A stretch of 57,625 nucleotides of DNA, counting the filler, from Sphacelaria rigidula (Eukaryota): assembly GCA_964200075.2 (NCBI GenBank). It is 4 parts of 4 records of this genome, joined end to end, with 100 filler letters (N's around TTAATTAATTAA, not from the genome) between each part and the next. Parts side by side here need not be neighbours in the genome. Positions count along the whole stretch, not along the records: positions 14,436 to 28,769 come from CAXNAA020002309.1; 3 more parts are not named here. The stretch is one strand, 5' to 3'. The translations under genes and the position numbers were made by a program. The notes under the pieces were generated by a model, which had not been told where the DNA came from, did not search any database, and saw only the letters and a program-made list of their open reading frames with translations. This document shows, one piece after another, positions 5,481 through 32,200 of this stretch (position 1 is the first letter of the stretch; each line of letters begins with the position of its first letter).

Positions 5481-5489
5481 CATGGACAC

Positions 5490-7400: not shown

Positions 7401-7404
7401 GCGC

Positions 7405-7725: not shown

Positions 7726-7919
7726 TACCACGAACATCACGTGTATGAGTGATGTCTAAACGGCACACCCTTGATAACCACATCCGGAGGTCATCGTACT
7801 TCTTCACCGCCCGTGCTCAGCGCGCCGCCGCCGTGGCGCAGACAAGAGGAATCCTCATCTCTCGCCCCAGCGTTACGCTGGACGCGCATGCCTTGGGGCC
7901 CATCCTTATATACACTCGA

Positions 7920-10752: not shown

Positions 10753-11333
10753 TGAATTTTGTGAATTATGCCCTAGCGAGGGCCCCCAAAAAATTTCAAT
10801 ACACAAAAACCAAACGTGNNNNNNNNNNGGTGAGTGGCCTGCGAAATACTGTTCCGAATTTCTACCGACCCGGTTTTTGAAAGGGGAATGCGCCGGTCAA
10901 TATTTTATAATACCAAATTTCACGCTCCAACTCTAAATATTGGCCGCCGCATTCCCCTTTCAAAAACATAATCAGTTGCCCATGACTCACCAAAAAATAA
11001 ATAAACTTGTGGTGCTTCTACAAAATTTATTTTCAAGTCCTATGCATTGTCCATACCGAATTTCACGCTCCAACTCTAAATAGTGGCCGCCGCATTCGCC
11101 TGCAAACTTCAAATCCGCCTGTAGGCTGGCCTAGCTCGTGGATAGTACAAACTACTGCTGTGCACTGTTGTCGCTGTATAGTACATGATAAACGGCCAGG
11201 CGGAAATTACAAATTTAACCGGCATTTGTGGTGGGTTGGCTCTCGTGCGATCGCATAGAAATGTACAACTTGATCAAGAAAGTCACGATGATATACAGTG
11301 GGTAAACGGTAAACCTATCGTGCGGGCGCGCGC

Positions 11334-11364
<31 letters not shown>

Positions 11365-12990
11365 AACAAAAAAGGGGCCAAGAGGGAAATTGGGGGGGGG
11401 GTTGNNNNNNNNNNTCACTTGGGGCGGGGGTCGGCGGGGGGGCGCGCGGGGGGGGGCGCGCGGGGGGGGGGCGCCGGGAGTGTGCTGGGGGAACCTAAAG
11501 CATGCCATATGTCAAAGTGAGTGAGTCGTTGCATTCATACACGGGGTACACGTCCAGCGGCTAATGATCCATGCAGGGGACGAGACAACACAGCTATTTT
11601 ACTGACGTTTCTGTCAACGGAGATTACCCCCTTTCACGCACATGGTGCATATATATTTGTGTAGATCCGCGTGCCGCGTGCGCAGCACAGACAACAGACC
11701 GTAGTCTCCTGCAGACTGACCGACTGCTGTGTGTTATGAACGGTGCTGACTTCGATTGCTACCCGGATCTCTTACGTACGACACCTACTTCCCCTCCACC
11801 CCCACCCCCCAACTCTTTAGAGGTCAACGTTAGTCAAAAGTACACAGTTCGGCGCAGTTTACTGCAGCTACTGCCTGTACAGCTCTCATGACATGGGGTA
11901 TGAGAACACGCTTCGATCCTGCCGCAACCGAAACTACTACGTTGTATGATACCTGCACTGACCGCTCACAAGTAAATATCTACAAGTCTCGTGACCAGTG
12001 TACAGTATCCTGTCTATTGCGCTGTTGCAGTGTATGTACTGTCCGTTGGGTCGCGCTGTTACTGCTACTGTTGCTTCGCTGCTCTCGTTGCTACAGCTAT
12101 TATTACTGCTGTTACTGTTGTTGTTGCTGCTGCTGAATGTCTCGATAGTACAGGGTAGCAGACAGTGCTGTAGAGTGTATAGGGAGCATCCTGAAATGGA
12201 AACAATTTCTCCTCTCTGTAGAACCGAGGTCGCATTGCTATACATACGATTGCGGCCCGCTGTGGTGATACAAAACATACATACTGGCTGTTGCTGTAGC
12301 CCTGAGCTAATCATAGTAGAAAATCTTAGAAAGAAAGACAAATGACTTTTACATACCTTGCCTGTGGCCATGCCTGAACCAGCATACACAACAGAAAATG
12401 ATACAAAGCGCCCGAAAGCCTCGCTGTAGATTTGCCCGACGCAAGCGACTGCCGGTGCTGTGCATGTACTCGATATGTTCTGACCCGCAGTCTGAAGATG
12501 CACGTAGTTCGACGGAGGTATTGAGTTGGGATAAGCTAACAAATTGTTGCACACTATAGATAGAGACTGCTTGGCGGGGGGGATCTATTGGTTCTAGTTA
12601 CCACAATTATTATTTCATCCATCTAGACTCTCCTGAGGTCAAAATCCATACCCCATGCTCTCTACTCACGACATTACTGAGCCTATAATTGAGATCCGCC
12701 GTCAAAAGATGGGCATTCTCAGGCAACCACGCATGCCAAGATTACACTTCTGGTTAGGGGGAATATCGATATCGGGTAAAGTGCAGATGTTACACTCGAA
12801 AGGTGAGAACAGGAAAATTCTGTATGCTTCCGTCGGTGCATGGAATTTGGAGCGTCCACAACGTGACCGACGGAACTTGAGTGAATGATAGTCTATTGTG
12901 ACAAGAGTAAACAAGAACAATCAGTGATCGATCCGTTCGTTACATCAACTCTAGGGTGGCACAGTGCGGAGAGAAGAGAGAAGGGCGGTG

Positions 12991-13915
12991 ATGACCGTAT
13001 CAGACGCACATACGCAGCGCAAAGTGCAGCTTGAAAGCCCAGCGACAATCGAAGAGGTAAAAAAAATCATACCGCACGCATTTATGATCTTTTGTTTTTT
13101 GCTGCAGATAGCTTTGACTCTTCTCGCGCAATCTCCCGCAATGTTGCCGTATAACACCCCCCCATCTACACTTGATGGTATGTTCAAAGTTGGTTTTTTG
13201 GCAGGCAAGGCCTCCAACCCGGCTCTCCCTGCAAATGTGCCGTTTTTCGAAGAATCTCGATTATATGCTGTCCATGATGTGAGGTTTTTTTGTCGGCGAC
13301 GCTGCAGGTTTGGAGAAAATCTAGTTTGGAACATGGATCGTGAGTATCCTCGTACCGGCTGGTCACTGAGATTGTTATACCGTGAAGCCTCTCGAGGTGC
13401 CCGCCTGAACCGTGCTCGCGACACCTCTTTCAAAGCAATTGATTGCAAGATTGCAGAGACGCCGACAGCAAGATGACGCTGCCGACTGTATCGTGCCGTG
13501 AAATGAACAAGAGATATATTCAGCCGACGAAATAAGGCTTTCACAACAAAAGCATGCCGTGCGGTGCTGGCACTTATTTTTTCAGGTGCGAGACACAGTC
13601 CATTTTGTCTTGAACTCGCCGGTCAACGCCCGAAACCCTCACAGCACTGTTGTTTTTCAACTCCCCCCGCCCCACCCCATCCCCATCCCCCATCCCCCAT
13701 CCTCTACCCCGCGCGGCAACTGCCAGGTAATATGTAATGCGAAAGGCACGGGCCATTTTGGCCAGCTCATGAAACTCGCAGTTGGTCTCGCAATAGGAAC
13801 GGACGGCATCGAGGTCACCCTGTTGAGTTACCTCGTACCGTGCGTGGCCGTGGACTGGGATCTATCGAGCTTGCAAAAGGGATCTCTGACCGCTTCCGTA
13901 TTCGCTGGAGAGTTG
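12991..13915 (+). CDS. MFS transporter, SVOP/organic-cation-transporter-like, first two coding exons (gene cut by the scaffold end)
   Basis: Exon 12991 (or acceptor at 12955) to 13056, MTVSDAHTQRKVQLESPATIEE|gtaaaa, joins in phase 0 to exon 13727-13915, ccAG|VICNAKGTGHFGQLMKLAVGLAIGTDGIEVTLLSYLVPCVAVDWDLSSLQKGSLTASVFAGEL|gtgaga. This matches the SVOP-type pattern TVEE..i..GfG.Fq....GL...D.mE..LLS.L.P....W.L......l...vF.G.l. Confidence 0.75.
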
Positions 13916-14335
13916 GTGAGAGGCGAGACACGGGCAGAGTCAAGGGCGGGCAAGGGGGAAAAGCACAGTACAATGCAGCAGTTAGCCCAGTCGCGGGTTT
14001 GCCCGTGCTTTACGTACGCGCTGTACTGACTGTTGTACTCTTGTATACTCTATAATGTTAGGTTGAGCATGCGGAGCAATTCTTTTTTTATTATTATGTT
14101 TCGTAGAGACACCGGAATCAGTTCGATGCCATTTGGGCACGGTTTTCCGAGATCGCATGCTGCAGTGCGGAGTTGAAGTTTGCAGGCCCACGCGCTGGCA
14201 AATATTCAGATTCGTAGCCTGAAATTTCGTATGAAAAATGCGCAGGGCATGAAAAAAAAAATACGAGTGCACCTTAGGCCGCTTCCTATAATGGACAAGA
14301 ATTTAAATCCAGAAAAATGTCTTTTTGGAGCTTTT

Positions 14336-14435
14336 NNNNNNNNNNNNNNNNNNNNNNNNNNNNNNNNNNNNNNNNNNNNTTAATTAATTAANNNNNNNNN
14401 NNNNNNNNNNNNNNNNNNNNNNNNNNNNNNNNNNN
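14336..14435. other. Artificial scaffold spacer N44-TTAATTAATTAA-N44
   Basis: Exactly 100 bp with a six-frame-stop 12-mer at 14380-14391; identical to the other two spacers. Confidence 0.98.
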
Positions 14436-14593
14436 GGGTGGAAGGGGGCGGTGGGTGGTTTTTTGTTTTTTGGCAAGTTTCAGTTTAGGGCCTTGTGGTT
14501 TTTTTGCCCCCCCCCGTCCCCCCCCCCCCCCCCCCCCCGCGCGCGCCTGCCTCTTTTTCAACGTACTGCCCCTTCTCTGCCCTTCCCTTCCAG

Positions 14594-17500
14594 GTGGACC
14601 TACCACGTAGACCTCGCGCAGATGACCCAAACGAACGTTTCGCATCCGGGGCGCAAGATCCGTCACATTCGGCGAAACTTCGGGCGCAAGCTTCCTAACA
14701 CTGCCCCCGGGTCGAGTAGCGGCAAGGTATGTGCTTGAAATTTGTGGGGGCTACTGCATCGCACAGCCTAGCTACTGTATTTTCAACTGGCTACTGCGGG
14801 CAGGCTTCATCATGCTCTTGTGTTCTAGTTTTAAGATTCTGGGTCCGTGAGTGTAGTGTGGAGCGTGCACAGGTTGATGAGTTCTGGAGATGGTGAGTCT
14901 ATCCTTGGGGGACTAAATAGACAGCCACACAACAGTATTACACACCCTGGACAAAATAATACATGATGAAAAAATATACTGCGTACAGTATCGACTATTG
15001 CGTCTATTGCAATAGACAATAGATTCCATGCTGTGTGCAGTACACTTTTTGACAATAGAATCTATATTGTCCAGGGTGTGCAATATTGTAGCAGATGTTG
15101 GTCCTGAGAAATGATCGTCGTCGATGTCGTCTGGGCGACGGGAAGGAAAATTCGGAGTCACCCAGGAACGTCGAGAACGTGCTTTTGAGAACCGTTGATA
15201 CGTCTTTGTGTTTTATTTCGGGTCGTTTTCCAGTGCTGACGATTTGTCATACTCCGGAGTATGATATTTTGAGAAAGTGGGGGATTTCCGGTTGGAGTAC
15301 CATTTAACGAACATTTCGGCATGGTTCGGTATGGTATCGAGCCCGGGTCCGAACACTCCGGTCTGGCCCGGAAGGATATTTGTTGGTAAAATTGCTCTCT
15401 TCACTTCTGTAAATATCAAACGTTACGCTCGTTACGCGTCACGTCGTGTCACGTTTCACGTCAAAAGTTAAGCCAGGCTAGTACTACGGTGGGGGACGGG
15501 GACCATGTGGGGAGCCCTGGTTTGACTTTACTTTTGAACATTGTGACAAAAAGTTAACACCCCCAACCACAATGCGCGGGCAGGCGGCGAGCGCCAAGGG
15601 CAAAGGCAAGGCCACGCCTCCAGTCCAAGGGAAAGGAAAAGGAAAAGGAAAAGGCAAAGGCAAAGGCAAAGGCAGTGCTGTCGCTGCGGCGGTCTCCACG
15701 GCCGAGGTGGATGTACACTGCCCCAAGGCCGGAAACAAGGGCGTGTCCGTCGTGGCGGGATACGATGCCAAGATGAACCAGACCAACATCTCGGCCAACA
15801 ACAACAAGTTTTACATCTTGCAGGTGTGTGCATAGGTGTAGGCGTGGAGGAGTCATGCTACGATAGGGGGAAAGGGGGGGGGGGAGGGGGGCGTACTCAT
15901 TTGGTGCTTGCCTTAGTCGTTTGACTCATTGACCACGCATCCCTCTCGAGACGGAGCACCGTTCGTACTCCTAGTAGAGACACCTCCAGCATCCCCGCGC
16001 TCATTACATTTCTTCCATATTTTACATTAGACAAAAACCTGTTAACATATCTTATCCCCGTCCTGTTTTGCGGTCTGTGGCCACCATCTATCTCCTAGTA
16101 CCGTCATCTCTCATGGGTGTGTCAGACGACCCAGTGCACTCGCGTTGCGCTTTTATTCGGGTAAAATCGGTGTCAAGCTGTATGGACGAGCATTATTTCT
16201 CGGTAACGAGCGCGCCCGAACAACCTTTGCTGCTTCCAACGAATATTAGAAGTGAAATGTCGTGGACGAAAGGGATCAAAATACCCCCCCCCCACCCCAC
16301 CCCCTCATCGTAGCATGACTCGGAGGTAGCTTCTGTTGACTTTGGTCATAGCGATCGACCCAACACGCGACTTTTGTACCCCTTTCGCGCCCGTGATTTG
16401 TTGAGTGGTTCTACTCTTGTGACCTTATCCAATGGGTTGAGTACTCGTAGTTGTAATCCAGTCTTGTGTATTTTGTTTCGTTGTACGTGCACATGTTAGG
16501 CTGCTTCTTATAACAGACAAAAATATATTTATGGAAAAGTGCATTTTTGGTGTTGTTACACCGTTTTACGCCCCAACAGAGAGCTAGGTGCAGTTTGACA
16601 CCTTGGAATGACTTGTTCTACTAGTTGAGGCGGTTCCAGGACCTCGTCCCATTTTCCGGTGGCCGCAGTTTTCATTTTGGCCAAACAAGAATTTCTGCCC
16701 AAGAACCGTAAAAAACAGTCAAATCTAGGGAAAATCGCCACTTTTCTCTGGACATGACTGTTTTTTGTCGTTCTTGAGCAAAAGTGTTTGGCCAAAATAA
16801 AAACTGCGGCCACCGAAAAATGGGAAGATGTTCTGGAACCGCCTCAAGTAGTAAAGCAATTCATCCCAAGGTGTCAAACTCTGCCCACCTCTCTTTAGGG
16901 ACGTGAAACGACGTGAAAGCTCCGAAAAGGGACTTTTCCAGGTTTTTATTTTTGTCTGTTATAAGAAGCGGCCTTACACGTACAGACGGAAGCAGCCACA
17001 ACACTAGGCAGGATATATTTTACCTATAGTCGATATGAATGTGCCTTGGATAAGTATGATAAGTGCTTGCTGCCTACCGTTTTTTGTTGGTGTACATATC
17101 ATTATCATAGTGTACATTTCGTCCCCTTTTTTGTCGCTTTAGTGCTGTTGTTGCTGAGGTTGGTAGTCGTGAAAGATTTGATTCTTGCTCTGGCTTTTTT
17201 GTGTACTGGTTTTTGGTTTTGCTCTTCCCACACAAAATAGGGGGGAGGGGGGGCGTACTCATGATCATGCATGCCATGATCATTAGACCATTGACGTCGC
17301 ATCTTTACAAAGTCGGGACACGGAGGGGACAGGGGGTGAATGTTGAGGGGAGGGAGTAGTTTTTGCTCCTGTTTTTTTTTTGTTCATGTTGCTGCTGAAC
17401 AGAGAATGCTTCTGTACCGCATTTTTCAACGACTACCACACCCAAAGGGCACGTGATGCGACGTTCCCCTTGAAATGTCTTCAGCTTGACGTTGGGTATC

Positions 17501-20500
17501 ACGTACACCAGGCTAAAAGTCATGTGGCCCACACTTTCCCCCTGAAACGTGCTCGTGCTCTGTGTCTGCTTCAGCGTATGTCGGATATTTTGACGTCAGA
17601 ATCCGTGACCTGAACTCAACCCTGTATCCGGATGGTGTCTGCGACGATTTACGTTACATAGTTTGCCTAGTTGAGGAAAGAGTGCATACTAAAGCTGGAT
17701 TCGTATGCATGAATGTGGGTCGGCATTATTGTCATCCTTTTACCCCGAGGGGACCCAAAGCAATGTTCGTACACAATGGTTGATGGGAAATATCATGGAA
17801 TGTTACAGATTAACGCTAACTCTAACCCTGACCCCGACCCCGACCCAAGGCGCACGAGACCCTCGGGCAAGGTGGGTGCACAGGCTCCCCTAGGCGAAGT
17901 GTGCGCGTTGGCAGACCTCAAATCGGCGCCGCAGGCACTGATTTCACCAAAAAATTGTTCTGGACGAGCTGGTCCACTGCTCACCTGCCCCGAACCATAA
18001 GTTTTCTCAGAACTGTCTTCAGTCTAAAAATCAAGTAGGCATCCCTGTCAACCAGTGTGTACGAATATTTCTTTAGATATACTGTTTACCCCCCCCCTCC
18101 CTTTCCGGAGGGTAAGTGTAGTCATGATCTTGCATCCGATAGACATTAGACAACTGACGTCGCATCCTACAAAGCCGGCGGGGGTCATCAATTGGGTTCT
18201 TCGTAGTCATTTTCCACGTGAAAAATTATGGCGATTTAAGAGATGACCCTACCCTGACGGTCCAACGGTTGGATGTCTGGTGCATTATATATATATGTAT
18301 ATATCTAAGATTACCATGTTTGTATTACCATATTTACCGTTCAGTTGACCTTCATCCATGCCATATTGGCACTTTGCCAGTCTAGTGAGCAGAGACGACT
18401 ACGCTAGTAATATGGGATGTCGTGTTACATTGCATCTTGTGGGGGTAGGGGTGAGGCACGGGAGGGGTCTTCGTCATCGTTTTCCTTGGATATATATATA
18501 TATATATATGTATATGCTGTTTTTAATAAATGTTCCGAAACGACCATCGTAATACGCGAATATGTAAATATATATATATTTAGTATATATATTTGTCAAG
18601 ACTTCAAAATGATGGATGATGGATGATGGTCATAATAGGGAGCATTTGAAAAATGAACCACCCATATTTCACGGATTTTTACTTCTTGATGTGTTTCTCT
18701 CTGCCACGCCACGAACGAACCTTGTGCCGTCCATGGACCACAGATGTGCCGCGACGACGGCCGCCGGAACTGGTTCGTGTGGTCCCGGTGGGGCAGAGTG
18801 GGGGAGAACGGAGCCTCGGCCGAACTCGGGCCGTTTTCCGACGAGGGAGATGCGTCCAAAGCGTTCGAGAAGAAGTTCAGGGACAAGACGGGCAACAAGT
18901 GGGAGGTGAGTAACGCGAGGGCGTGCCGTGTAGGGTATACCCGATATTATCTTATTTTTTAGAAGTGAAGGTTTGACCCGTGCCCACAGTAGCAGCCAGC
19001 CCAGTGCTGTGCTGTGCTGTGCTGTGCTGGGCTGTTGTTCCCCCCTCTATAAAACAAAGCCCGCACAAGTCATGGCGACTGACTTGGGCTGGTGATGTGC
19101 GACTTTTCAAAATGCCAACATATATCGGGTACACCCGATTTTGCCCGACACGCCCTTGGAGTAATGCTATCGACCGGCCGCACCACTTCTACACTCTACG
19201 GTGACTTCCCTTGACTCTTTGTCGGCCGGGCATGTGCTGCGCTGTTTCCCCGTCATGAATGAGTTGAGTATTCATTACTGTTGCCCTTCTCTCTTAGTAT
19301 ATGCTTATATGTAAATGTATATGTACTTTTAACGGTCTTTGTTTCAATATTTGTACTTCCTCGGAGACATAAGTTAGCTCGATTATGGTGCGCAGATCAT
19401 ATCTTTGAACGGAAGAGCGTGCGATGCGATAGTTAGATCCATTGCAAAGCTACAGTCACGGAGATGCTCATGATAAAAAACTAAAAAAGTCATATTTGCT
19501 ATTATTGAGAATCTGTGGGTTTTAAACACCCTGTTTTGGCCAATACTTTGGGATTGTTTTTAGAATGTTTTTGAAAATGTTCTCTGACACTTTTTTGAGA
19601 ACACTTGAAAAAACCGCGATGGAGACCATAAGCACCCCCCCCGCCAGCGGGGCGTTGAGGTTTCATTGGGCCGCCGCTATGGGCTGGCGATGGAGGTAGC
19701 GCTGGCCATTCCGCCAGGCAAAGTAAGGCTGCCCAAGGGCGTTGCAGGCCCCCTCGCCCAGCGCTACGGTGTCGACCCTGAATACCCCGCACAGCTTTGG
19801 AAAAGCTGGAAAGGGCAGACCTTTCAACCAAACCTCGTAGCGGGCGGCCGTCGCTGCTTACTCCAATGAAGAAGGCTACAGACACTGCGGACGGTAATAT
19901 GGTGTTTTTTCGCCCCCGGAAAAGGGGCGAAATATGGCCTTTTTTGGGCCGACTGTTTTCTTGGGCCACATGCCCATGCAGGAAGCTGCGCAAAAAAAGA
20001 AAAAAGAGAAGGGTTTGAACTCGAAAAATGACGAAGATTCCAAAAACATCATCGCCAACGGCATGGGGTACGGGCAAGGACCGGTGTAAACGTAATCGAG
20101 CTAATTAATGTGTTGGAGGAAGTATAAGCTGTTACTACCTACCAGAGGACACTAGTTATAGTTTTGGCCGGTGTATGTCGTGCGTTTGGATGCCGACGGT
20201 ACAGACGCAAGAGAGAGTCAGAGTCTCTTCTTGGATTTCGGTTTTAGAATGGTACTACGGTAGAGGGGTGCACACATATATTTTCTGAGGTTCGAATTGT
20301 TCGGAGCCCTCTACAGTATCCCATTCGGAAAAACAACTTGTGAAATAGGTTACAGCGCGCTACGATTGAATAACATTTCAATGAGTTAGGGATATCCCGA
20401 ATGACTCACTACTTTCGTGCAGTACCTATCTCCTACCCTGTGGTGGTGGAGGTTGGAGCGGGGTGGGAGTCGGGGGTTAGGTTGGAAGTTGCACGCACTT

Positions 20501-21422
20501 GAGATGGCGACTTTGATGAAGAAACACGGTGATATTGATGATGTGATGAAAAAACGAGTAGCTCTGTTCCCCTTGATCGGGGTGTCTCGCTCATCGTTCA
20601 CTCGTTGGTTTGCACACCAGGACTGCGGGGGATGCGAAACAGTATTCAAGGATAGTTTTGTAAGCTGGCCGCTGACTTGGTCTTCGTGTGCATGATTTGT
20701 GCGTGTCGCACAAATTATTATTGGGCTCTGTTCGCGACTTACTAGCTAGCTCCTTTGCGTCACTGCAAGTTGGGCATGCGGGGTAATGGTAAATCATGGC
20801 CCTTGGACTTTATCTGACCCATGGTCATTTTTTATCATTATTTTTTTGCCTTCTTGAACCTATGGTCATCGGATCTCTTCTTTAGAATCATCATCCAGGA
20901 TTAATTGTGATTCGTGCTAGCTGTGAAACAACCCCCCCATCCCCCTGAAGACATGAATGAAATGTGCTCCTACTCAGGACATGGTTGCCTCTGCTCTCGC
21001 TCTGGCGCGAATATCTATATGTTCCTCTGTTCTCCATCAGGACGCCAAGCAGGGGAATTTCACTGCCTACTCCGGAAAGTACGAGCTGATCGAGACCGAT
21101 AGCAACGATACCACGGTGCCGGCTGCTCTGGCCAACAGTGGAGCGGGTGCTGGCGGGAGCAGCGCGAGCTCTTCCGGTCCTCCCGCGAAAGTTTTGCCGT
21201 GCACGCTTGACAGCGCCACCAAGGCGCTAGTGGAGCTGGTCTTCAAGTGAGCGAGAGGGTCCCGAGATGTCGTGGACGTTTTTTGCTGAGAACGACGCTA
21301 CCCCATCTAGCATTGGTTGATATATCGCACGGTTAGGACAAATGGTCACCACTCAAAATCACCAATTTCACGATTTCTTCGGCCTGATTGCCCAAAAGGG
21401 AAACAAAAGTTGATCGCTGCTT

Positions 21423-21455
<33 letters not shown>

Positions 21456-24400
21456 GCTGCTGCTGCTGCTGCTGCTGTTATCTTCGTTGTTGTTTTTTAT
21501 TTTGGGCTCGTGTTTCAGCGAGGACATGTTCAAGTCTGCTATGAGCACCCTGAACGTGGACATCAAGAAAATGCCCCTCGGACAGCTCAGCAAGGCTCAG
21601 GTGCAGCGCGGCTACACTGTGCTGGAAGAGTTGGAGGACACGCTCAACAGTAACGGTCGCAACAGGGCTGCCATGTTGGAGGATCTCTCGGCTAGGTTTT
21701 ATCAGGTAGGAGTACCGTTCTCTAGTCTATGTATCTATGTATTTATGTATATGCTTGTGGCTTTCGTTGGGGGTGGCGGTGAAGCCATATACTTCGATTA
21801 TAAATGGGAAATATGACTTGTATGATCCCCCTGATCTGGATAAACGAAGGAGCCCGGTGCGTCAACCCCGTCCCCCCTCCCACCCCCCTACATTTTTGTG
21901 CTCTCATGTACGCAAATCAGGTCATCCCGCACTCGTTCGGTCGCCAGAGGCCACCGGTGATCAACTCCGCTGACATGCTCCGTGAAAAGGTGGGACTAGA
22001 GATGTATATTTCCGTATCAGACACGGCAAAACGTCCCGCAGGATATGTTACTTTTTACATAACCTCCTAAATTATAGTGTGTGCACTGCCATATATTCTG
22101 TGAGACTACACAGTAATATGTACTCACATTTATTGTGCGACCGGTTAGCGTCGTGAATACAGTACTCATTTGCATCTCTCCTACAAGAGAAGGGTAAGTG
22201 GATAATCTTTCCCGTGGGATGCTATGGTAGGGGTGCACAAATATTTTCTGAGGTTGGATTCGTTTGGAGCCCTTTCTCTAATCCAACACACAACTTATGA
22301 AATATGTGAGAGTACGCCAGGATTCCTATTCCAATGTGCTTGAGATGCCCCGAATGGATTTGCAAACGGGATTGCCCTGACCCATATTCGTGTGCATCTA
22401 GAATCGTGAGGAGCCCCCGAACTAGACATTTTTTTTCGCAAAAGTGCGCCCCTACCGTAGCATTGCTCTTCCGTAAGGATGTAATCGCGACTTCCTCTCT
22501 GGCCTTCTTGATACGGATTTTTTTTATCTGATACCCTCTGTCGTATAATTTTCGTTTTTCGTTTTTCGTTTGATTTTAGAGTCTCCAGGAGAGTCGGCTC
22601 AATGGGCTCTTCTGTCTGAATTTAAGGAATAGTAGTAGTGACGGTACTGGACAGGCGAGCCCACGTCGGTGACCGCGGGTTCGAGAGGTCGAGCTAATGT
22701 GTGGAAATTGTAATAATAATAATGTGATGTAGTATATAATACAAGGTTCCCCTTCAGGAGGTTGGTACGAGCCTCCCGGGGGTGACGCAAGTCGAAAACA
22801 TATGGTTAACCCTAAGACCGCGATGCGGGTAGTCCATCTGGATCACGCATACTTTTCCCAGTGACATTGATGCCGATTCAGCAGGTGACCTACCCTCGCG
22901 GTCAGAGGTTTAAAAGAGGTTGTTGTATCTCAGTGTACAGTGGTGATCGTGGCTGTACAAAACATCGCATGTGCTATCGCATGTCGTTCGGAAATATGGG
23001 AATTCGGACGGACGCCGACGGGGGAACCGCCGGCGTAAGACATGTGTGGTATTCTCGAGGTGCCAGAGTGCGAAGTAGCTCTAGTGCCACAAAGACACGA
23101 CAGCGGGAAGCACTTCCCGAAAAATTGGAATGCATGAAACATTCTTGGCATGTTCGTTGTACATCACTGTGGCTTCCACATCACCGGGCCTTTTTTTAAA
23201 ACAGGGTGATTATTTTTCGCGGCAAAACATTCCTGTGCTGCCGTGCTGCTGTGCCTTGTTCAACTCGCCAACGGCCCATTGCACGGTCTTGTGTTAGCTG
23301 GTGACTAAGGCCAAGGCAATGTTCAATTGTTTTCAACTGCTTTGCTCTCATGTTCTCGTGACATCGGCGGCACAACTGGTGTGTTCGTGCTCCCAAATGA
23401 ACGAGAACGCGACAAAGAGAAACACGGGGAAAAATACCTCGCCAAAAGTAATCCTGTTTGCAGTTTTCTATGATCTTCAACAGGCTTTTGTGGTTCGGTT
23501 TCCTGTTTCAAGTTTTCCATAATCTTGAAAAGGCTTTCGTGGTTTGGGATCCACACGCCGCAAAAAAGAGCCAGTTTGAACGACTTTCGGTGGTCAGAAC
23601 ACGCGCCACAGGTATCAGATGACACCCAAATCTGAACGGTAATGTACCGCTGAGCCCTCTTAGTGCGCTGCAAAAGAAGGAGCGGGAAAATATGCCTTGC
23701 CGCCAGAGAAGACTCGGCAAAAGTGGTGAAAAGTGTGAAATGATACATGTACATATAATAAAAGATAATATTAGTATTTATTTAATTATATCTGTATTTT
23801 TCTTGCCCACCTTTTTTTATTGGTTTACGTGTTTCGGTTTGTGGAATATTGAACAATCCAGGTGGAGCTGTTGAACGTGCTCCAGGACATCGACGAGGCG
23901 CAGTCCATGCTTTCATCCAAGGGCAGCGGCTCTTCTGGGAAGGCCAAGAGCAAGGGGGCCAAGGCCTCGGCTGTTCCCACGGTGCCTCACCCCACAAATG
24001 TCAACTACGATCTCTTGAAGGCGGACCTCAAGCTCGTCCCTTCCAAGTCTCAGGAGTACAAGACAATCAAGTGAGACGTTCGGCATCGATGTAGATGTTG
24101 GTGTATATTACGTGTCGTCGCATTCAGCATGAGTACGGAGGTCTCTCCCGGTGAACACTTCTCATGGAGGGACTGGGCACATTGGCAACGGTGTTGTATT
24201 CCCGCTTGATGAAGAGGAAATAATGTAGGCAGAAATAACCTCCCACAACGTCGCCGAACATTATGTTCATTCAGAACAAGTTCCCAAAATGTTGTCCAAC
24301 ATCTTGTTCATTCAGGACAAGTTCCCAAAATGTTGTCCAACGTCTTGTTTATTCAGGACAAGTTCCTAAAATGTTGATTCATGTAGAGCAACTTCCCCCC

Positions 24401-27102
24401 AACATTGACGAACATCTTTCAAATTTGGGACCCTTTTTTTAAACATTGTCTTGTCAGATATTGCACTCCGTTTAGAACAACGTCTCAAACGTTGTCAGAT
24501 GATGTATTCGTGTAGAACAAGACCCTTTTCAAAACAAATTGCCTGTATCTGAAAACACACGCAGATTGTTTTCTGTTCTGTCGGAGGAGGTATGCATATG
24601 TTTGTTTCATAACACGCTTCGACGTGCGTTACTGAATTTTGTTCTTGTATTCCATTCAAATTTGTTTTGTTTTTCGAAAACCTCGGGCCACAGTTTTCGG
24701 ATACCTGTTATGGACTATGCTCTGCTCACCCATGTTGCGAGGAATATTGACATAGCGGAGATGCGATTTCCAAACGCTTTTTTTTGGGAATTTGCAAGGT
24801 GATTCCCCTGTGACTTTCTCATCATCTGTGATGAATGAACTTTGAAGGCATCGATCGCCATCTTCCACGCTCCTCACCTTGGGCGCTCGTTCCTATATCA
24901 CTCACCAATTGAAACACCACTTGAATCAATAGGAGCTACTTGGAAAACACTAAGCCTGGATACGGCGATGTGGAGATGTACGACGTGTGGTCAGTGGATC
25001 GCGAGGGCGAGGCCGACCGTTTCGCGGAGCACGACAAGATCACCAACCGGAAGCTGCTGTGGCATGGGACCAACGGTACGAGGAGAATCTGTGTGTACAC
25101 TACAGACAGTATACACTTGCATGTTTCCATGCTCTTTGTTGTTTTTTGTTTCCGTTAGTGTTATTGTTAGTGTTAGGGTTATCGTTATTGTTATTGTTAT
25201 TGTTATTGTTATTGTTAGTCACCTTTGGTATGTTTGTTATATTTTTTGTTATATTGTTATTTTGTTATTTTGTTATTGTCATCGTTATTTTTTGTTATCT
25301 GTTGTTATTTTTCTTGTCATTTTCCTTTGTACTTACTATCATTTTTGTTATTGTTCTTATATTGTTCTTATTTTTGTTATCTCCGTGATTTATGTTTTTA
25401 TTTTTGCTTTTTTTAATTTCTTTTTTTTTGTTTCGTTGTTTTTGTTTTTCGTTGTGTTGTCTTGTAGTTGTCATCATTGATATCACTGACTATTCTTATC
25501 ATTGTCATCATCATTGTCATATAATAAACAACGCGCGTTCTACTATCGATGTGCAATCCTTGACATACAAGCAGGTGTGTCAGATATAATAGAGGGTGAT
25601 AATCGCAGTATTTTTGCTGTCAACTGTCTTGTGAATGTTTGCTGAAGACCCAACATGCGCTCAAAAGAGCAAGAATAGAGCAAATTACAAGTGTGTGATA
25701 ACGGTCTGCAAGGGTGTTTACTCACGACCAGCACTCCGCATCTTCTTTGTAAATAATGAAAATGGTATGTCACCATTTTCCAACGCCACGGCTACTCTTA
25801 TTCGTGTGCCATTTCCCGACTTCTACAGTTGCAGTGGTCGCTGCCATCGTGAAGAGCGGTCTCCGTATCATGCCCCACTCTGGCGGGCGGGTTGGACGCG
25901 GTATCTACCTGGCTTCGGAGAACGCGAAGAGGTGAACGGAATGTTCGACTGTACTGTACTACGTTCAATGTGATCTGTAGGGTTTAGAACATACTTGTCG
26001 TTCAGGATAATCTGTAGGGTTTCGAACATGCTTGTTGTTCAGGAAGATCTGTAAAATGTTCAGAACATCGTTGTCGTTCAGGATGATCTGTAGGGTTTAG
26101 AATTACGTGTCGTTCAGGAAGATCTGTACGGTGTGGAATATTACGTTTCTTGCTCAGGAGGACCTGCAGGGTTTAGAAAAATCGATTACAGGTGGCACGA
26201 AATCTGCCCTCGTCATGATGAACTATTATTTTCCCAAATCAGTCATGTGGCAGAGGCCGACCACTTTCATTTTTTTTTTGTCTTTGTCTACTCTGTTTTT
26301 CTTTATTTTGTCATGTCTTTGTTTCTTTGTTTTTTGTTTCCTTTTTTTTCTTTGTCCTTGTCTTTGTCCTTGTCTTTGTCTACTCTGTTTGGCTATTGTA
26401 CCTCTTCTGTGTTTCTTCACTTGTTTCAGCGAAACTTACAGTCTTGTTTTGTCTCGGATACGTCTATCTCGTGCATAATGACTACAACTGGATCATGACT
26501 ACCTGGGAGATTAAGTAGAGTGCGACAATCGAATCAATCAGTCAAGTGTCTCATATCACTTGTCATGTCGGTTGTGTGACAACTTGGGAGTGATGCTGCG
26601 GTAGGGGTGCACAAACATTTTCTGAGTTCAAAGTTGTTAGGAGTCCTATATCTCATTCAAAACTCGACTTATGAAAATATGTGAGAGTACGCCAGGATCA
26701 CTGTTCCAATATGCTGGGGATATCCCGAATGAGTTTGCAAACAGGGATGCTCTGCGACCCATATTTTCTTGTGCATCTAGAATCACTGGGAGCCCCTGAA
26801 TCGGACAAGACTTTGTACAAAAGGTGCATCCCTACTGTAGCGTTGCTCTTGGTTGCCTCATGTGATTGATCTCCACGCTTGAAAAAAATATCACCCTAGC
26901 TTGCGGTTGCATTTACTCATTTTCCCTCTGGCTCTTGAATTCCTCGTCGCTCGTTCTGGTGTCGATCAGCTTTGGGTACGTGCGGCCTGCCTACAGGGCG
27001 AAGGGGTCGAATAACGTGGGGATCATGTTTTTGTGCGAAGCGGCTCTCGGGAAGGAGGCCAGCATAACGGTCGACGACTGCAGGCTCACCGCGCCGCCCG
27101 CG
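14594..27102 (+). CDS. PARP3: PARP3-like ADP-ribosyltransferase with WWE-like, (GK)n, WGR, helical regulatory and catalytic regions; 10 exons, both ends missing
   Basis: Exons, all GT-AG with compatible phases: 14594-14726 (WTYHVDLAQMTQTNV...KIRHIRR, WWE-like); 15584-15823 ((GK)n, YDAKMNQTNISANNNKFYILQ); 18744-18905 (WSRWGRVGE...FEKKFRDKTGNKWE, WGR); 21041-21246 (GKYELIE...CTLDSATKALVELVF); 21519-21705 (EDMFKSAM...KMPLGQLSKAQV...LSARFYQ); 21921-21989 (VIPHSFGRQRPPVI); 23862-24070 (ELLNVLQDI...HPTNVNYDLL); 24933-25075 (YLENT...VDREGE...NRKLLWHGTN); 25829-25931 (VAVVAAIVKSGLRIMPHSGGRVGRGIYLASENAKS); 26970-27102 (GYV...GIMFLCEAALGKE...LTAPPA). About 1585 nt of coding sequence. HGTNxAVVAAIxxSGLRIMPHSGGRVGxGIY is the PARP3-type signature with the short D-loop. 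The His and Tyr of the H-Y-E triad are present; the Glu-bearing exon lies outside the scaffold. Confidence 0.93.
15886..15980. repeat. High-copy short interspersed repeat (core GGTGCTCCGTCTCGAAAGGGATGCGTGGTCAATGGTCAAATGACTAAGGC)
   Basis: Copies at ~15886-15980 and ~17250-17330 (reverse), ~28595-28715 (two tandem), ~31790-31865 and 43157-43198. Piece C ends inside a copy and piece B ends ~55 bp after one. Confidence 0.85.
16499..16973. mobile_element. 475-bp foldback MITE with TTA target-site duplication (PIF/Harbinger-type) in PARP intron 2
   Basis: tta|GGCTGCTTCTTATAACAGACAAAAAT ... ATTTTTGTCTGTTATAAGAAGCGGCC|tta. The arms stay complementary almost to the centre near 16735 (e.g. ggtggccgcagttttcattttggccaaaca versus tgtttggccaaaataaaaactgcggccacc). 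Confidence 0.9.
19356..20122 (+). mobile_element. Internally deleted Tc1/mariner element (767 bp) with TA TSD, ~31-bp TIRs and a transposase N-terminal HTH remnant, in PARP intron 3
   Basis: ta|CTTCCTCGGAGACATAAGTTAGCTCGATTA ... TAATCGAGCTAATTAATGTGTTGGAGGAAG|ta. Frameshifted internal peptide RYGLAMEVALAIPPGKVRLPKGVAGPLAQRYGVDPEYPAQLWK / DLSTKPRSGRPSLLTP (HTH followed by the GRP linker). Confidence 0.8.
21423..21478. repeat. (TGT)n(TGC)n microsatellite just upstream of PARP exon 5
   Basis: Read directly; it produces the poly-L, poly-C and poly-N ORF artefacts. Confidence 0.9.
22219..22463. mobile_element. ~245-bp MITE family with ATGCTACGGTAGGGGTGCAC-type TIRs; three copies in PARP introns
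   Basis: Copy 22219-22463 (atgctatggtaggggtgcac...gtgcgcccctaccgtagcat), copy 26593-26843 and a truncated copy at ~20250-20420 share internal attttctgag(g)tt...aacttatgaaa...gagagtacgccagga. Confidence 0.8.
22741..23757. mobile_element. Unclassified interspersed element with asymmetric ends, associated with TA-rich sites
   Basis: Begins ACAAGGTTCCCCT...GGGGTGACGCAAGTCGAAAA and ends GGTGAAAAGTGTGAAATGATACATGTACAT. Homologous segments at ~41436-41822, ~42520-42930 and ~40935-40990 in piece C. Confidence 0.7.
24255..24400. repeat. 41-bp minisatellite in PARP intron 7
   Basis: tgttcattcagg/aacaagttcccaaaatgttgtccaac recurs at 24264, 24305 and 24346. Confidence 0.85.
25972..26180. repeat. ~37-bp minisatellite (about 6 units) in PARP intron 9
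   Basis: gatctgtagggtttagaacat..ttgtcgttcagga repeated with degeneracy. Confidence 0.85.
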
Positions 27103-27267
27103 GTAAGGGCGGTTGGTTCAATGTGTTTTACTATCATCAACGGTTTCATTTTCCTTGGTGAAAATATGGTTGTCCTGTGTTCGGTATGTACGGTATACGG
27201 GCTGAAATTGGGGTATTTCAATAAGTATGATATAGTAGGTGTTATATATAATAGTAATAACAGTAGA

Positions 27268-27330
<63 letters not shown>

Positions 27331-27352
27331 GTAATAATAATAGTAATAATAC
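27268..27352. repeat. (AAT)n microsatellite
   Basis: Read directly; it produces the poly-I and poly-Y ORF artefacts. Confidence 0.9.
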
Positions 27353-28769
27353 CCTTCCGAACCGTACTGTACTAATTGTTCGGAACAGGGGTTAGATACC
27401 CTGCCGGACAACACCGGAATGTTTCGGTACACATTCGGTCAGTGTTATCCTCCTCGTGTTTACTTTTTTGCTACAGCTCGGAGATCAAACTGGGACATGT
27501 CATCAACGGCCAGTTCGGGTAACTTCCGTTGGAATCCCGAGATATGACCTTTTTCTCCACAAGAATTTGGTCTCTGTCGCCTGAAGCATGAGGGTATGAG
27601 GAAACTAGAATTATGAAATTCCACGACTGTCGAGACTCTCCGGGAGCGGTGATCCAGCGCTTTCGTTTTTGTTCAGTTTACCTCGTTTGTTCTGTATCCC
27701 CCCCCCATTTTGATTTTTTTTTTCGTGTTCTCTCCCTTTTTGTCGAATTTCCTCTTAGCCGTTGTTATTCGGTTTTATTCACCTCGGGTATATGGACCTT
27801 GTGTGACAACGGCTGGGGATCAGCTCGTGTGCGACAATCGATCGATAATTGAATTCATCAATGCATCAATGCATCAATGCATCAATTCATCAATTCATCA
27901 ATCAATCGGGCAGGTATCGAGGAAGATATACATGCGGTGTTTGTTGCCTTCAGACTACTGTCACGGACAGGTACAGCACCGATGTATGAATTGAAGGTCG
28001 GCACCGATAGACACAGATGGGCACACTACCAATATAGGCAGCGTCAGACATCAGTAGGCACGAACAGGCACAATTCCAATCGTCACCCCCTATCAGGTAT
28101 CACCCCTTATCGATACGTCACTGATTCAAAAAAAGAACATGATCTTGCAAAGTATGCTCGAGCAAGGGTTTCTGGTGGTGATTATTCGATATTCTGTGTA
28201 ACCGTTTGACCGCTCGGGTCACTTTGTTGGATGATGAACGGAGGGGAATTTAGGGCAGGGGGTCCCGGATACCTGTTTTTGGTGCAGAGACAACGCTTAC
28301 AACGAGAAGGCCGTTGCTACGCGTATGCTGCACGTCATGGTGCAGTTGTTCGTGCACAAAATACGACCGGGGAAGCAGTGACGTGGGAAGTACAGGAAGA
28401 CAGTATAGCGTTGGTCGCGCCAGCGGGACATGTGGCCATGCATGCGCGGAGATGTCATGGCTTGTGCATGATAGCTGTGGCGCGCAGCACATGTGTGACA
28501 GCATCCCTTTGTATGTAGGCGTTCTCTCCCTTACAAACGAACCTCCAACCCTCCCCCCCCGTTCTTGTTGGAGACGTCTCTAATAGGAACACGGACGGTA
28601 CTCTTTCTCGAAGGGGATGTGTCGCAAATGGTCAAATGACTTTGGCATGCATGCTCATGAGTACACCCCTAGTAGGAACGGTGCTCTGTCTCGAAAGGGA
28701 TGCGTGGTCAATGTGGAATAAGGTGGGATGAAGAAGTCGGGAAAGTGTGGAAGGAGATAGGCGGAAACC

Positions 28770-28869
28770 NNNNNNNNNNNNNNNNNNNNNNNNNNNNNNN
28801 NNNNNNNNNNNNNTTAATTAATTAANNNNNNNNNNNNNNNNNNNNNNNNNNNNNNNNNNNNNNNNNNNN
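28770..28869. other. Artificial scaffold spacer N44-TTAATTAATTAA-N44
   Basis: Same 100-bp structure as the spacer at 14336. Confidence 0.98.
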
Positions 28870-29184
28870 CCCCCCTACAAACGCAGTATGTGAAAGATAT
28901 ATATATACACACATATATATATATATATGGACTCTAGAATTGCCTGTGGCGGAATTTCAGCGTTACACCGCTGTGACTATACAAAGCTGAGTTTGATGCT
29001 GTTCAATGCGTGGTCTCGCGGCGGTCGGGTACTTGTGTGATGTGCTCCTTATCATCTCTTCAAGTTACTCAAACATTTCCGTCAATAACATCCACAATGG
29101 AGCCTTGGCAGTACCCTTGCTTTGTCGTCAACGAACGCAGTGCACCCCACTTGATTTTGTGTTTAGGACTGTAGTAAGTCTTAC

Positions 29185-29262
29185 CTCCATCTTTGGCAGT
29201 GTTGCTGGTGAAAGTTGTATCGCCATCGATAGTCATGCTGCTGTTAAATACGCTGACAGCAC
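29185..29262 (-). CDS. Pmp/adhesin-like beta-helix repeat exon (78 nt, phase 1-1)
   Basis: ctgcAG|GT GCT GTC AGC...GAT GGA G|GTaag, encoding (G)AVSVFNSSMTIDGDTTFTSNTAKDG(G), with the GGA(I/V) and FxxN motifs. Confidence 0.75.
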
Positions 29263-32200
29263 CTGCAGCGAGAACCCGACGCACGCAGAAGTTAGATGCA
29301 CCTGGGTGATGGGGTGTTACATCTGCAACACGACATTTGGAATGCGCTGGGTGAGGTGGAAATCTCCATGTTGACATTTCTCACCTCGCGATGCTCTTAT
29401 TTACGTACCCGCCATGTCTCAGCGATGGATGGAAACGTAGCATCGAAACGAAAACGACGGTGGTGAATGTTTCCGCACTGGAAATGCGGTGGATAGTTCG
29501 GAGCTCCGCGAACGTTGGTTTGAACGCGATTATTGCTGCCCCGTTCATCGATGCCTCCCTCTTCCGAGCTTCACCCAAACTTAGAGCGGTGCTATTATAT
29601 TGTAGTGCCACTTGCCGGACGACGCACGGTAGTGCTTCGTTCGAGCACGCAATTGGGGATCTGAGCAAAACGAGAATAGCTTAGGAATGCTCCATTTCCC
29701 TGTTGAAGGACCATATACGTCAACTTATCGGCGACACCCACCCGATTTCCAAACAGACGCCATGTGACGATGTCCTAGGTCACCATAAACTTTGGAAGGA
29801 TGGCCCCTGCGTGCGTCTTGGGGAGGGGGCTAATCTCAGGCGAGGTATCATCCCCTCAGACGATTCTTTTTCCAGAGCATAGTGGAGGGAGAGCTCCGCA
29901 TACTCAGGAAATGTCTGAGGGAATACGTCAATTCGAAACCTCCACCGTTATGGTGGCATCGCATGCGTATCTTGCCAACAATCAAAGTGCCGGAGTGCAT
30001 CACTGAAGCCGAACAAACACGTTTCTGATTTTATGGTAAAGCACGCCGACAAGCAACTAGAACAATTCCACCGAAACGGGGCGAACTTCACAGAGAGGGT
30101 TTTTCCTTCGGAAGCTCGGCATCCCGCACGGTAAACTTTCATCGCGCATTGATGGTCATGCCACACGTGAAGGAACAGCTCGCAAGATAGGACTGGCTAC
30201 GGAGGATTGTGACAAAACAAGTCCCCAGCAGCCATGAGGATCGTTCCGTGGTCCAAGAACAAAACACAGAACAGTCCTGTGCGTTGTGTAGTGTCTCCCG
30301 CATGTAGTTCCTTGAAAAAAAAAAAGGCGAGGCATGGAAATGAACACGTTGTGAAGGAGGAACGCCGAAAAGCGGGGGAAGGGCAAGCGTTGTGTCCAAT
30401 CGGGTGAGCTCCGTCCTCTCAAGGTCTTGTGCAGCCGTTGCATGTGCCTGGCAGACCGAAGGCACGTGTTTCGAGTGCAGTATGTTGGCCGTGCGGGGAA
30501 ACGCGAAGTAATCTCGCATGGGGTAGGCCAGGCATAACGTGCATTTGGTCGGTAACCATCAAACCCATTCGTTCCCGAAATCCTCCGGTAGTTCGTCCAC
30601 GGTAGCGTTCAGGATGAAGGGAGGAGCTTGTCCCCTACGTACACCACAAGAGCTCCCCCGCTGTCGTGTTTGACAAGTACAATAGGGACGCTATGACGTG
30701 AGATAGAAATCACTTACATTATATTTGGTGTCACGAGTGTCGATAAAAATACGGATATTAAAAAAAACTTCAACCAGCATAATGAACAAAAATCCCCCCG
30801 TGCAAGATAGAACGTGTGCACGACTAGATGAAACATTTTTTCAAGAGGCGAAAATATAAGCGCGGAAACAAGAGTATGCAGTTTCTCCTTCACATAGGAT
30901 AAGAATTTCTGACGGAACCTGATTAAGAACTTCGTACAGTAAGCAGCACGTTGCGGTACTACCTCCTGCGGTGAGGGCAACAGGTGCACACAGCTTGAAC
31001 GTAAGGAAGTGGCGCGTTTGTTCATTTGCACCAGTTTGCGGGCACGACGCGCGTTGAATGTGACGTGTTCAAGGTGAGGTACGCCTGACGCAGCAATGTT
31101 TGCCTTCTCGAACCTTAACTGATCTATGTGTTTACAGCGGGGCGCTGACTCTTAGCCTGGTTCGGATTTCAATTATAAATTTATGAACAGGGATAATCTT
31201 ATGGATTGGAATGGAGAAGGGGGAAGTAGAAGGGAGAAGGAAATTGGTTAGGTGACAGCAAACGTATCGGGAAGAGGTCATTCCTTGTGGTCGGCTAGGG
31301 GTTGTTTCGCTTAGCCCGCGGAAGGAATGAGATACAGCAGACGTGTGTTATCGTGCAAGCTGCCCTTGGTTGCTTGCTGTTTTCTCTTTTTCGTAGTGTT
31401 CCTCTCTCCGTCGATGCCAAGTGAGAAAAGATCATGCGAGCGGAGGATTTACGGCAGCTTTCAGCTGCAAAGATTCATCCTTGTAATTTCTCCGTACTTA
31501 CAGTTTTCAATAGTTTTGTCGCGTGCCATAGTTCATCCCAATGATCGTCTGATCTTGGAATTTGGGGATCGGAAGATACCACGCATCCGCTCCACATTCC
31601 ACAGCAAAAATCGTCTCTGCCCTCAATATTGAACGACTTACTGGCTGAATTGACAGGGGGTGTTTCATTGACCCCTTTGGTCCAAAACATGCTTTTCTCA
31701 CTTTAGCGCAATAAGTTGGCGAAACAAAGAAGAAAGGTGCGTAAAAATATTCACGAGGGCGACTGGGATTGGTTTTTCCCCCTCTTGCTCGGTGCTCCGT
31801 CTCGAAAGGGATGCGTGGTCAATGGTCAAATGACTAAGGCAAACAACAAATGAGTGCGCCCCCCTCTTGCTATGCAGAGCTCGGTTGGGCACTTTTCGTA
31901 GTTGGAGACTGATCTGAACTTTCCCGTATGGCGTCCTCCCTTCTCAATATAAGGTCCTAGCGTCGATAGATATTGCAGGGAAAAGGTGTGTCATGCTTAG
32001 AACACAATACTCAGTTTGTGTTGTCGGGGTGATACGGAGTAAACACAATGTGTATCAAGGGTGTTACCGATCGTCACTGGTCCAAAAGAGACATTTCTTC
32101 GTCTCAAAAGCAACAAATAGGCATGGCTTTGAAAAAATACTCCCCTTTACATTTGTTTACGAAAACGATCGGGGTTGCTTCAAACGGGCAAAAATACCCA

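Follow-up and report, generated by a model that had tools for sequence, protein, structure and literature searches.

A partial PARP3-like gene with a WWE exon in the brown alga Sphacelaria rigidula probably belongs to a widespread algal and protist architecture

In human PARP2 and PARP3, the WGR domain next to the helical regulatory domain (HD) binds 5'-phosphorylated DNA breaks and releases catalytic autoinhibition. Human PARP3 (structures 3c49 for the HD and the ADP-ribosyltransferase (ART) domain, 2eoc for the WGR domain) has the same WGR-HD-ART core as the gene described here, which comes from the brown alga Sphacelaria rigidula (assembly GCA_964200075.2) and lies in a stretch of 57,625 bases that we call the window. 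However, human PARP3 has a single WGR domain and no WWE domain, unlike the algal architecture. The WWE domains known to bind poly(ADP-ribose) (PAR), those of RNF146 (3v3l, 4qpl), TRIP12 (9bks), HUWE1 (6pfl), DTX1 (8r5n) and PARP11 (2dk6), match the modelled WWE domain of the family in fold (template modelling score, TMt, 0.70-0.84), but they sit in ubiquitin ligases or clade-3 mono-ARTs, whereas the algal WWE domain stands behind a WGR domain on a clade-1 PARP. In the excerpted text of Perina et al. (2014, PMC4245714), a WWE domain is placed at the N-terminus of the PARP2 homologues of many non-mammalian animals (bird, frog, fish), ahead of the WGR-PARP_reg-PARP core as in the alga, and PARPs are reported to be present in Ectocarpus. 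Those animal proteins are called PARP2 homologues there, whereas the algal protein is nearest to PARP3, a comparison that goes by the paper's description only. The corresponding excerpt of Citarelli et al. (2010, PMC2964712) confines the WWE domain to clades 2 and 3 and reports diatoms and 'brown algae' to be without PARPs.

The window consists of four scaffolds of about 14.3 kb each (1-14335, 14436-28769, 28870-43198 and 43299-57625), joined by N44-TTAATTAATTAA-N44 linkers with stops in six frames (14336-14435, 28770-28869 and 43199-43298). Since it is a concatenation, no feature is to be interpreted across a linker. The PARP gene sits on the plus strand of the second scaffold (14436-28769), and its best protein matches are from Phaeophyceae (Hapterophycus, Ectocarpus, Ascophyllum and Laminaria). 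Its brown-alga orthologues are P0003 of Ascophyllum nodosum (745 aa), P0043 of Laminaria digitata (partial), P0002 of Ectocarpus sp. 6 (585 aa) and P0001 of Hapterophycus canaliculatus (partial), all four entered as 'unnamed protein product' at NCBI. The Ascophyllum and Ectocarpus proteins are 67-69% identical to the window gene over its 528 residues and have the same order of parts, and the same peptide bridges the WWE domain and the linker in brown algae. Scaffold breaks cut the window copy at both ends; the Ascophyllum and Laminaria models cover the WWE domain in full and a further WGR domain upstream of it. We consider it quite probable that the second scaffold carries the middle of one brown-alga clade-1, PARP3-like ADP-ribosyltransferase gene, whose 528 residues there begin with the second half of a WWE domain and reach about two thirds of the way through the catalytic domain. 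Judging by the orthologues, the whole protein would be arranged as WGR - WWE - K/G-rich linker - WGR - HD - ART. The features on the scaffold are as follows.

14436-14593 (+): scaffold start and 3' end of the intron preceding the WWE exon; G-rich and long poly-C tracts, then a pyrimidine tract and CAG acceptor
14594-14726 (+): exon for the C-terminal half of the WWE domain and a 17-residue tail conserved in brown algae (Pfam WWE, identity to orthologues)
14727-15583 (+): predicted intron of 857 nt (GTATGT...GGGCAG), with an in-frame stop three codons past the donor; contains ATG 15572
15584-15823 (+): Lys/Gly-rich linker and start of the PARP-proximal WGR domain (...NNNKFYILQ); Pfam WGR 1-21, tblastn to P0002 81-122 at 81%
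18744-18905 (+): WGR core (...WFVWSRWGRVGE...); Pfam WGR E 7.4e-14, profile 24-73/79, 84% identity to P0002
21041-21246 (+): end of the WGR domain, low-complexity linker and start of PARP_reg; tblastn to P0003 334-399 and P0002 174-237, donor AA/gtgagc
21519-21705 (+): HD; Pfam PARP_reg E 9.5e-18, profile 18-79/135, 82% identity to the Hapterophycus protein
21921-21989 (+): HD; Pfam PARP_reg profile 80-102/135, E 6.5e-5, 84% identity to P0003
23862-24070 (+): last part of the HD, then the linker leading to the catalytic domain; aligned by tblastn with P0003 485-550 and P0002 323-389
24933-25075 (+): catalytic exon with the triad His (...LLWHGTN); Pfam PARP 10-57/199, E 1.1e-8, 89% identity to P0003 552-597
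25829-25931 (+): catalytic exon (...SGLRIMPHSGGRVGRGIYLASENAK) with GIYLAS; Pfam PARP 60-95/199, 94% identity to P0003 596-631
26970-27102 (+): last catalytic exon on the scaffold; Pfam PARP 103-134/199, 78% identity to P0003 635-675, phase 0, GTAAGG donor
27103-28769 (+): intron sequence to the scaffold end, without the exon(s) for the last ~70 residues that include the catalytic Glu

The exons were set by eye and then by tblastn with the orthologues. When spliced, the ten exons yield 1584 coding bases, or 528 codons with no stop, and all intron borders are GT-AG. Residues 1-527 of this model align in a single high-scoring segment pair (HSP) with Ascophyllum P0003 171-675 (66.7% identity), with Ectocarpus P0002 11-515 (69.3%) and with P0044 of the green alga Ulva mutabilis, residues 243-775 (41%), and all three HSPs pass uninterrupted through the junction between the WWE domain and the linker. 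The Pfam matches on single exons follow the order WGR, PARP_reg, PARP, each in profile order; the exons 21041-21246 and 23862-24070, taken alone, have no Pfam match. Two features of clade-1 PARPs are found on the window exons, a WGR domain directly upstream of the HD, and PARP_reg 18-102/135 followed by PARP 10-134/199 on successive exons, with the last third of the catalytic domain off the scaffold. Of the H-Y-E triad, the His (in LLWHG) and the Tyr (in GIYLAS) are in the window, and the Glu, which lies within SEYLVY in the orthologues, belongs to an exon outside it. These triad positions, including the GIYLAS Tyr, are assigned from PARP1 numbering; the GIYLAS motif of the exon 25829-25931 is also common to human PARP3 in the alignment. 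An end of the fourth exon at 21247 was ruled out, as the spliced frame then acquires stops while the end at 21246 gives none. A pseudogene was rejected as well, given the ten open exons, their canonical GT-AG borders and their 64-94% identity to orthologues.

The exon 14594-14726 codes for part of a WWE domain, far beyond chance. Its first base, just past the acceptor tctctgcccttcccttccag/G at 14593/14594, completes a split codon, and the donor GGCAAG/gtatgtgc (14726/14727) closes the exon in phase 0. The translation of 14595-14735 matches Pfam WWE (PF02825) with E 5.3e-4 and 20.7 bits, its residues 1-27 falling on profile positions 43-67/67. The score rises to 22.4 bits when the open frame is begun 16 codons earlier, against a gathering score of 21.1 bits, which is as much as can be expected from a half domain of 27 residues; the full domains of the orthologues match with E 2.5e-7 (P0003) and E 2e-8 (P0043). 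Aligned by tblastn with the WWE region of Ascophyllum P0003 (171-217, E 6e-17), the exon peptide shows 77% identity over 47 residues; with Ectocarpus P0002 13-54 it shows 74%. In the part of the domain that it covers, it has the family residue at all positions where 169 distinct WWE stretches are conserved to at least 95%. A word-indexed homologue search with the 44-aa WWE exon alone returned zero candidates.

The sequence-only reading of this stretch had proposed most of this model, and its description of the exon 14594-14726 (the borders, the pyrimidine tract with CAG, the AAG/GTATGT donor and phase 0) was accurate throughout. Its identification of the exon as the C-terminal half of a WWE domain agrees with the Pfam match and the orthologue identities above, the product of about 528 residues that it foresaw corresponds to exactly 528 open codons, and the four families that it expected from Pfam (WWE, WGR, PARP_reg and PARP) are all matched by window exons, WWE over its second half. 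It had also placed the missing WWE half and the catalytic-Glu exon outside the scaffold, which is right, and the make-up of the window from four joined scaffolds explains why it said so. Nowhere in the window does tblastn find the N-terminal 170 residues of P0003 (best non-paralogous E >=0.45) or the C-terminal ~70 residues of the orthologue (nothing better than E 0.8), and the motif EY[LIVM][LIVM][YF] is absent from the window in every frame. Therefore, the first WGR domain, the first half of the WWE domain and the catalytic-Glu exon lie beyond the scaffold ends. The break in the assembly on that side is probably due to a long poly-C tract close to the edge of the scaffold, at 14505-14540.

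Whether the WWE exon belongs to the PARP gene turns on the junction 14726/15584, which we infer from colinearity with the orthologues and not from RNA. Among sequencing runs that share words with the stretch, none is on record as RNA; four presumed to be RNA have a share of 0.10, and four of DNA type have 0.32-0.80. The evidence supports a single gene, as the sequence-only reading had it, and three brown-alga models join the homologous peptides: in Ascophyllum P0003, Laminaria P0043 and Ectocarpus P0002, ...TGK or ...GGK ends directly onto a K/G- or K/A-rich linker followed by the WGR domain. In all four brown algae, conservation extends beyond the WWE domain over a further 17 residues (RRN.G..LPNT.PG...GK), as far as the donor. 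Among relatives, the WWE domain and the PARP core occur within a single open reading frame (ORF) or transcript, as in uninterrupted four-domain ORFs on contigs barely longer than themselves (P0144, 830 aa on 3343 nt; P0179, 938 aa on 2998 nt; P0135, 829 aa on 2833 nt) and in transcriptome records that hold the four domains together (the MMETSP records P0174 and P0230, and the TSA-derived P0047, labelled 'complete'). Several observations weigh against joining the exons. The frame closes three codons past the donor (GKVCA, then a stop). ATG 15572 is preceded in frame by a stop at 15479, and no pyrimidine tract stands before the acceptor at 15583, so that a PARP without WWE could physically start at ATG 15572. 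A single annotation pipeline may lie behind the brown-alga gene models, which are not fully independent. Such models can also be wrong at the 5' end, since that of Ectocarpus sp. 6 begins MSQRVV... inside the WWE domain where Ascophyllum and Laminaria have ...GLSQRVV...; it is probably truncated at its 5' end, so that it lacks the first WGR domain together with the N-terminal half of WWE. Moreover, since the scaffold includes neither the first WGR domain nor the first WWE half (with the equivalent of RNF146 Tyr107) nor the catalytic Glu, the gene can be called intact for its middle part only. The early stop, the stop at 15479 and the weak acceptor would all suit an exon 14594-14726 that is the last coding exon of a separate WGR-WWE gene (...SSGKVCA, with TGA at 14736-14738), the PARP then starting at ATG 15572, and stand-alone WGR-WWE records do exist (P0064, P0071, P0072, P0074 and P0079), most of them fragment-like. 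However, we judge such a pair of genes very improbable: a 3' untranslated region (UTR), a promoter and a 5'UTR would have to fit in 834 nt, all three brown-alga models run from ...GK into the K/G linker and WGR domain, the spliced model aligns unbroken to orthologues as far as Ulva, four-domain single ORFs are the majority (26/43 and 22/29 in the surveys described below), and GTATGT at 14727 is a good donor that resembles the other donors of the gene. A locus with two products, the long WGR-WWE-WGR-HD-ART protein and a short PARP3-like one from an internal promoter in 14727-15571, is compatible with the single-gene reading and not opposed to it. ATG 15572 lies in frame between the stop at 15479 and the acceptor, 12 nt ahead of the latter, and the basic K/G tail of the short product would resemble the K/A-rich N-terminal tails of the WWE-less proteins P0004 and P0005. 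Nothing indicates a promoter in 14727-15571, however, and the retrieved proteins include no WWE-less brown-alga model of the gene, though the Ectocarpus model is N-terminally short, and we regard this arrangement as distinctly unlikely. In-frame AG acceptors near the linker exon lie at 15515, 15554, 15584, 15599 and 15611.

The ligand of the WWE domain is a separate matter from the single gene that we favour. For the 202-aa WGR-WWE protein P0102, modelled with AlphaFold2 on an alignment of 73 relatives, the mean pLDDT is 90.7 and the pTM 0.80; such a pTM is high for two domains and suggests that the WGR and WWE domains hold a fixed mutual arrangement. In Foldseek, the first half of the model matches the WGR domains of PARP2, PARP3 and PARP1 (root-mean-square deviation 1.4-2.7 Å over ~99 columns), and the second half matches ligand-bound WWE domains, those of TRIP12 (TMt 0.84), HUWE1 (0.79) and RNF146 with iso-ADP-ribose (0.70). 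A look-up of the pair in the ESM Atlas gave WGR clusters only, with scores of at most 0.77, to be taken as leads only. Matches of the family's WWE domains in sequence are weak but consistent (DTX1 E 3e-5, RNF146 and PARP11 E 0.009). In the phmmer alignment of the Cymbomonas member with RNF146 (3v3l, E 0.009), Tyr144, Gln153 and Arg163 fall on Y..VDL, M.Q.N and R.IRR (RNF146 residue numbers being chain positions plus 98); the window exon has the equivalents of all three, which are conserved to at least 95% across the 169 family stretches. No tool aligned the equivalent of Tyr107, which falls in the off-scaffold first half of the domain. Tyr107, Tyr144, Gln153 and Arg163 of RNF146 are reported to be essential for binding iso-ADP-ribose in the excerpt used of PMC10793466, which also reports that the WWE domains of TRIP12, HUWE1, Deltex and PARP11 bind PAR in vitro. 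From the conserved Tyr, Gln and Arg positions and the fold, it is thus a well-founded expectation that the algal WWE domain would bind the iso-ADP-ribose unit of PAR. With the same gene structure, it might instead bind terminal ADP-ribose or a free nucleotide, or merely serve as a structural partner of the first WGR domain, which the fixed unit suggested by the pTM of 0.80 would suit. Against PAR binding, the Laminaria WWE domain has PARP11 as its best sequence match in PDB (E 0.063), and PARP11 is reported to prefer terminal ADP-ribose (PMC10450202, in part); the top structural matches are TRIP12 WWE domains crystallised with ADP or ATP. Set against the family-wide conservation of the three RNF146 positions and the PAR binding reported for all four of those WWE domains, PARP11 included, a WWE domain that does not read PAR seems to us unlikely.

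The single PARP gene that we prefer has a layout seen in full elsewhere. In Ascophyllum P0003, Pfam places WGR within 1-110, WWE at 122-197, WGR at 261-338, PARP_reg at 385-523 and PARP at 543-744, and the same layout, with two or three WGR stretches and the WWE domain after the first, is found in the partial Laminaria model, Ulva, Cymbomonas, two diatoms and others. The two WGR domains are paralogues of each other (31% identity, E 4e-15), and the first is carried by both of the most complete brown-alga orthologues, those of Ascophyllum and Laminaria. Thus, the architecture proposed from the sequence alone, WWE-WGR-HD-CAT, was correct in its four domains but fell short by the additional N-terminal WGR domain of the relatives (WGR-WWE-WGR-HD-ART).

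This architecture is also common. When the first 215 residues of P0003 were used as query, PARP, PARP_reg, WWE and WGR occurred together, by precomputed Pfam lists, in 26 of 43 relatives (those with E 1e-3 or better among 874 candidates). A filter-free phmmer search over 1.84 billion cluster representatives with the WGR-WWE protein P0064 (417 aa) gave 964 matches at E <=1e-3, 303 at <=1e-10 and 76 at <=1e-30. From the 150 matches listed, 29 representatives of at least 500 residues that had not been scanned before were taken through Pfam; all four families were present in 22 of these 29, and a PARP core without a WWE match in one. The remainder included three WGR-WWE-RING-DTC (Deltex-like) proteins, one Myb-WGR-WWE, one WWE-HMG box and one WGR-WWE-WGR fragment. 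Named members come from brown algae (Ascophyllum, Laminaria), diatoms (Attheya, Cylindrotheca), a pelagophyte (Chrysophaeum), green algae (Ulva, Bryopsis, Cymbomonas) and a red alga (Pyropia, partial); among the stramenopiles, the Laminaria member is a partial model without the catalytic domain, and those of Cylindrotheca and Chrysophaeum are named 'Poly [ADP-ribose] polymerase' in UniRef. The premise that WGR-type PARP1/2/3 lack WWE holds for the mammalian enzymes only, because PMC4245714, in the excerpt cited above, describes WWE on non-mammalian PARP2 homologues, and it is at odds with the counts of 26/43 and 22/29. The novelty that had been claimed for the combination fails with it, as the architecture turns out to be common and already annotated in stramenopiles, an outcome that the sequence-only reading had itself named as a refutation. 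The window gene is a further member of a widespread, already database-listed algal and protist architecture.

Some relatives carry other arrangements. The Deltex-like proteins are P0105 (an MMETSP transcript), P0117 (with a PARP_reg fragment after DTC) and P0127. P0101 is the Myb-WGR-WWE protein and P0213 the one with WWE and an HMG box. P0085 (1573 aa) has four WGR and four WWE stretches ahead of HD-ART, P0119 (Chrysophaeum) has BRCT in front, and P0056 consists of BRCT, PARP_reg and an R-S-E-type ART (PF01129), then WGR-WWE. The same excerpt of PMC4245714 gives WWE on bird PARP2 homologues, yet says that PARP2 was lost in birds; the WWE-bearing animal 'PARP2 homologues' may really be of the PARP3-like kind.

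A tree of the second WGR domain, HD and ART (47 rows, 488 columns; quick maximum likelihood under LG+G4, unrooted) bears on the position of the gene. It carries support values from the Shimodaira-Hasegawa-like approximate likelihood ratio test (SH-aLRT) only, its WWE-bearing and WWE-less rows were retrieved by different queries, and the program warned of long branches. With these limits, 26 of the 27 WWE-bearing rows form one group (SH-aLRT 96), all 20 WWE-less rows fall outside it, and the sole WWE-bearing outlier is a long-branch Cymbomonas row. The window groups with two brown-alga proteins (SH-aLRT 100), next to Bryopsis (96). The tree thus shows the gene in what appears to be a PARP subfamily of its own, marked by the WWE domain. 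In a comparison with all PDB sequences, the HD and ART of P0003 score highest with human PARP3 (3c49; 386 bits, E 3e-114), compared to ~197 bits for catalytic fragments of PARP1 and ~146 bits for those of PARP2, in keeping with the PARP3-like label first given to the gene. The PARP3-type stretch SGLRIMPHSGGRVG.GIY.ASEN is common to the window and human PARP3; in P0003 the shared motifs extend to SGLRIMPHSGGRVG.GIY.ASEN.KS and SEYL.Y.ESQ. By homology with human PARP3, activation by DNA breaks would be expected; the product may be mono-ADP-ribose, as that of human PARP3 is, or PAR.

By analogy with human PARP2 and PARP3, the algal WGR domain beside the HD would sense 5'-phosphorylated DNA breaks and relieve autoinhibition, while the WWE domain could recruit or hold the enzyme where another PARP has already written PAR. 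The extra N-terminal WGR domain might, more speculatively, provide a second DNA-end site in cis. For human PARP2, two WGR domains from two molecules are reported to bridge one break (PMC6294510 and PMC7608914). More broadly, it is an attractive but tentative idea, to which we give somewhat less than even weight, that WGR-WWE is an ancient, rigid and mobile cassette that would sense DNA ends and PAR. It would define a pan-eukaryotic PARP3-like subfamily that mammals lack, would recur in Deltex-type RING-DTC ligases and in Myb, BRCT and R-S-E-type ART proteins, and could allow PAR-primed, two-site recognition of breaks with bridging in cis. Within CC-licensed PMC papers and bioRxiv, we found no description of the WGR-WWE cassette or of the tandem-WGR architecture, nor of WGR, WWE, Deltex and DTC linked as one architecture. 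What is new here may be the undescribed, recurring cassette and not the window locus. The WWE domain on a WGR-type PARP is a common algal and protist architecture and not an oddity of brown algae, the textbook domain content of PARP1/2/3 proves to be centred on mammals, and for this brown-alga PARP gene, fragmented as it is, there is now a model in which each exon has been checked. The WGR domain apparently packed against a WWE domain is an unstudied unit, with 303 protein clusters at E <=1e-10, on PARPs and Deltex-like ligases alike; if it does sense DNA ends and PAR jointly, it would offer a simple example from nature of feed-forward between writer and reader in the signalling of DNA damage.

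Elsewhere in the window, eight long ORFs have no Pfam match at E 1e-3 or better. On the fourth scaffold, long stop-free frames without a Pfam match at that threshold extend over 47547-49181 (+, 544 codons), 51875-53215 (+, 446), 45320-46561 (-, 413) and 54798-55637 (-, 279). The introns of the PARP gene contain several repeats. A dispersed repeat of ~230 nt (72-83% identity) occurs in two of them, at 22218-22444 and 26592-26823, and a third, more diverged copy was seen by eye near 20260-20400. The 2.9-kb intron after the exon 15584-15823 holds an inverted repeat (16488-16687 and 16785-16984) with 200-nt arms that are 82% complementary and 97 nt apart, which has the look of a miniature inverted-repeat transposable element. 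Tandem repeats lie at 24257-24376 (41 nt x2.9) and 25972-26178 (37/76 nt x5.5), a (GTT/GCT)n run was noted by eye at 21430-21480, and an (ATA)35 microsatellite occupies 27248-27351 in the intron at the 3' end of the scaffold.

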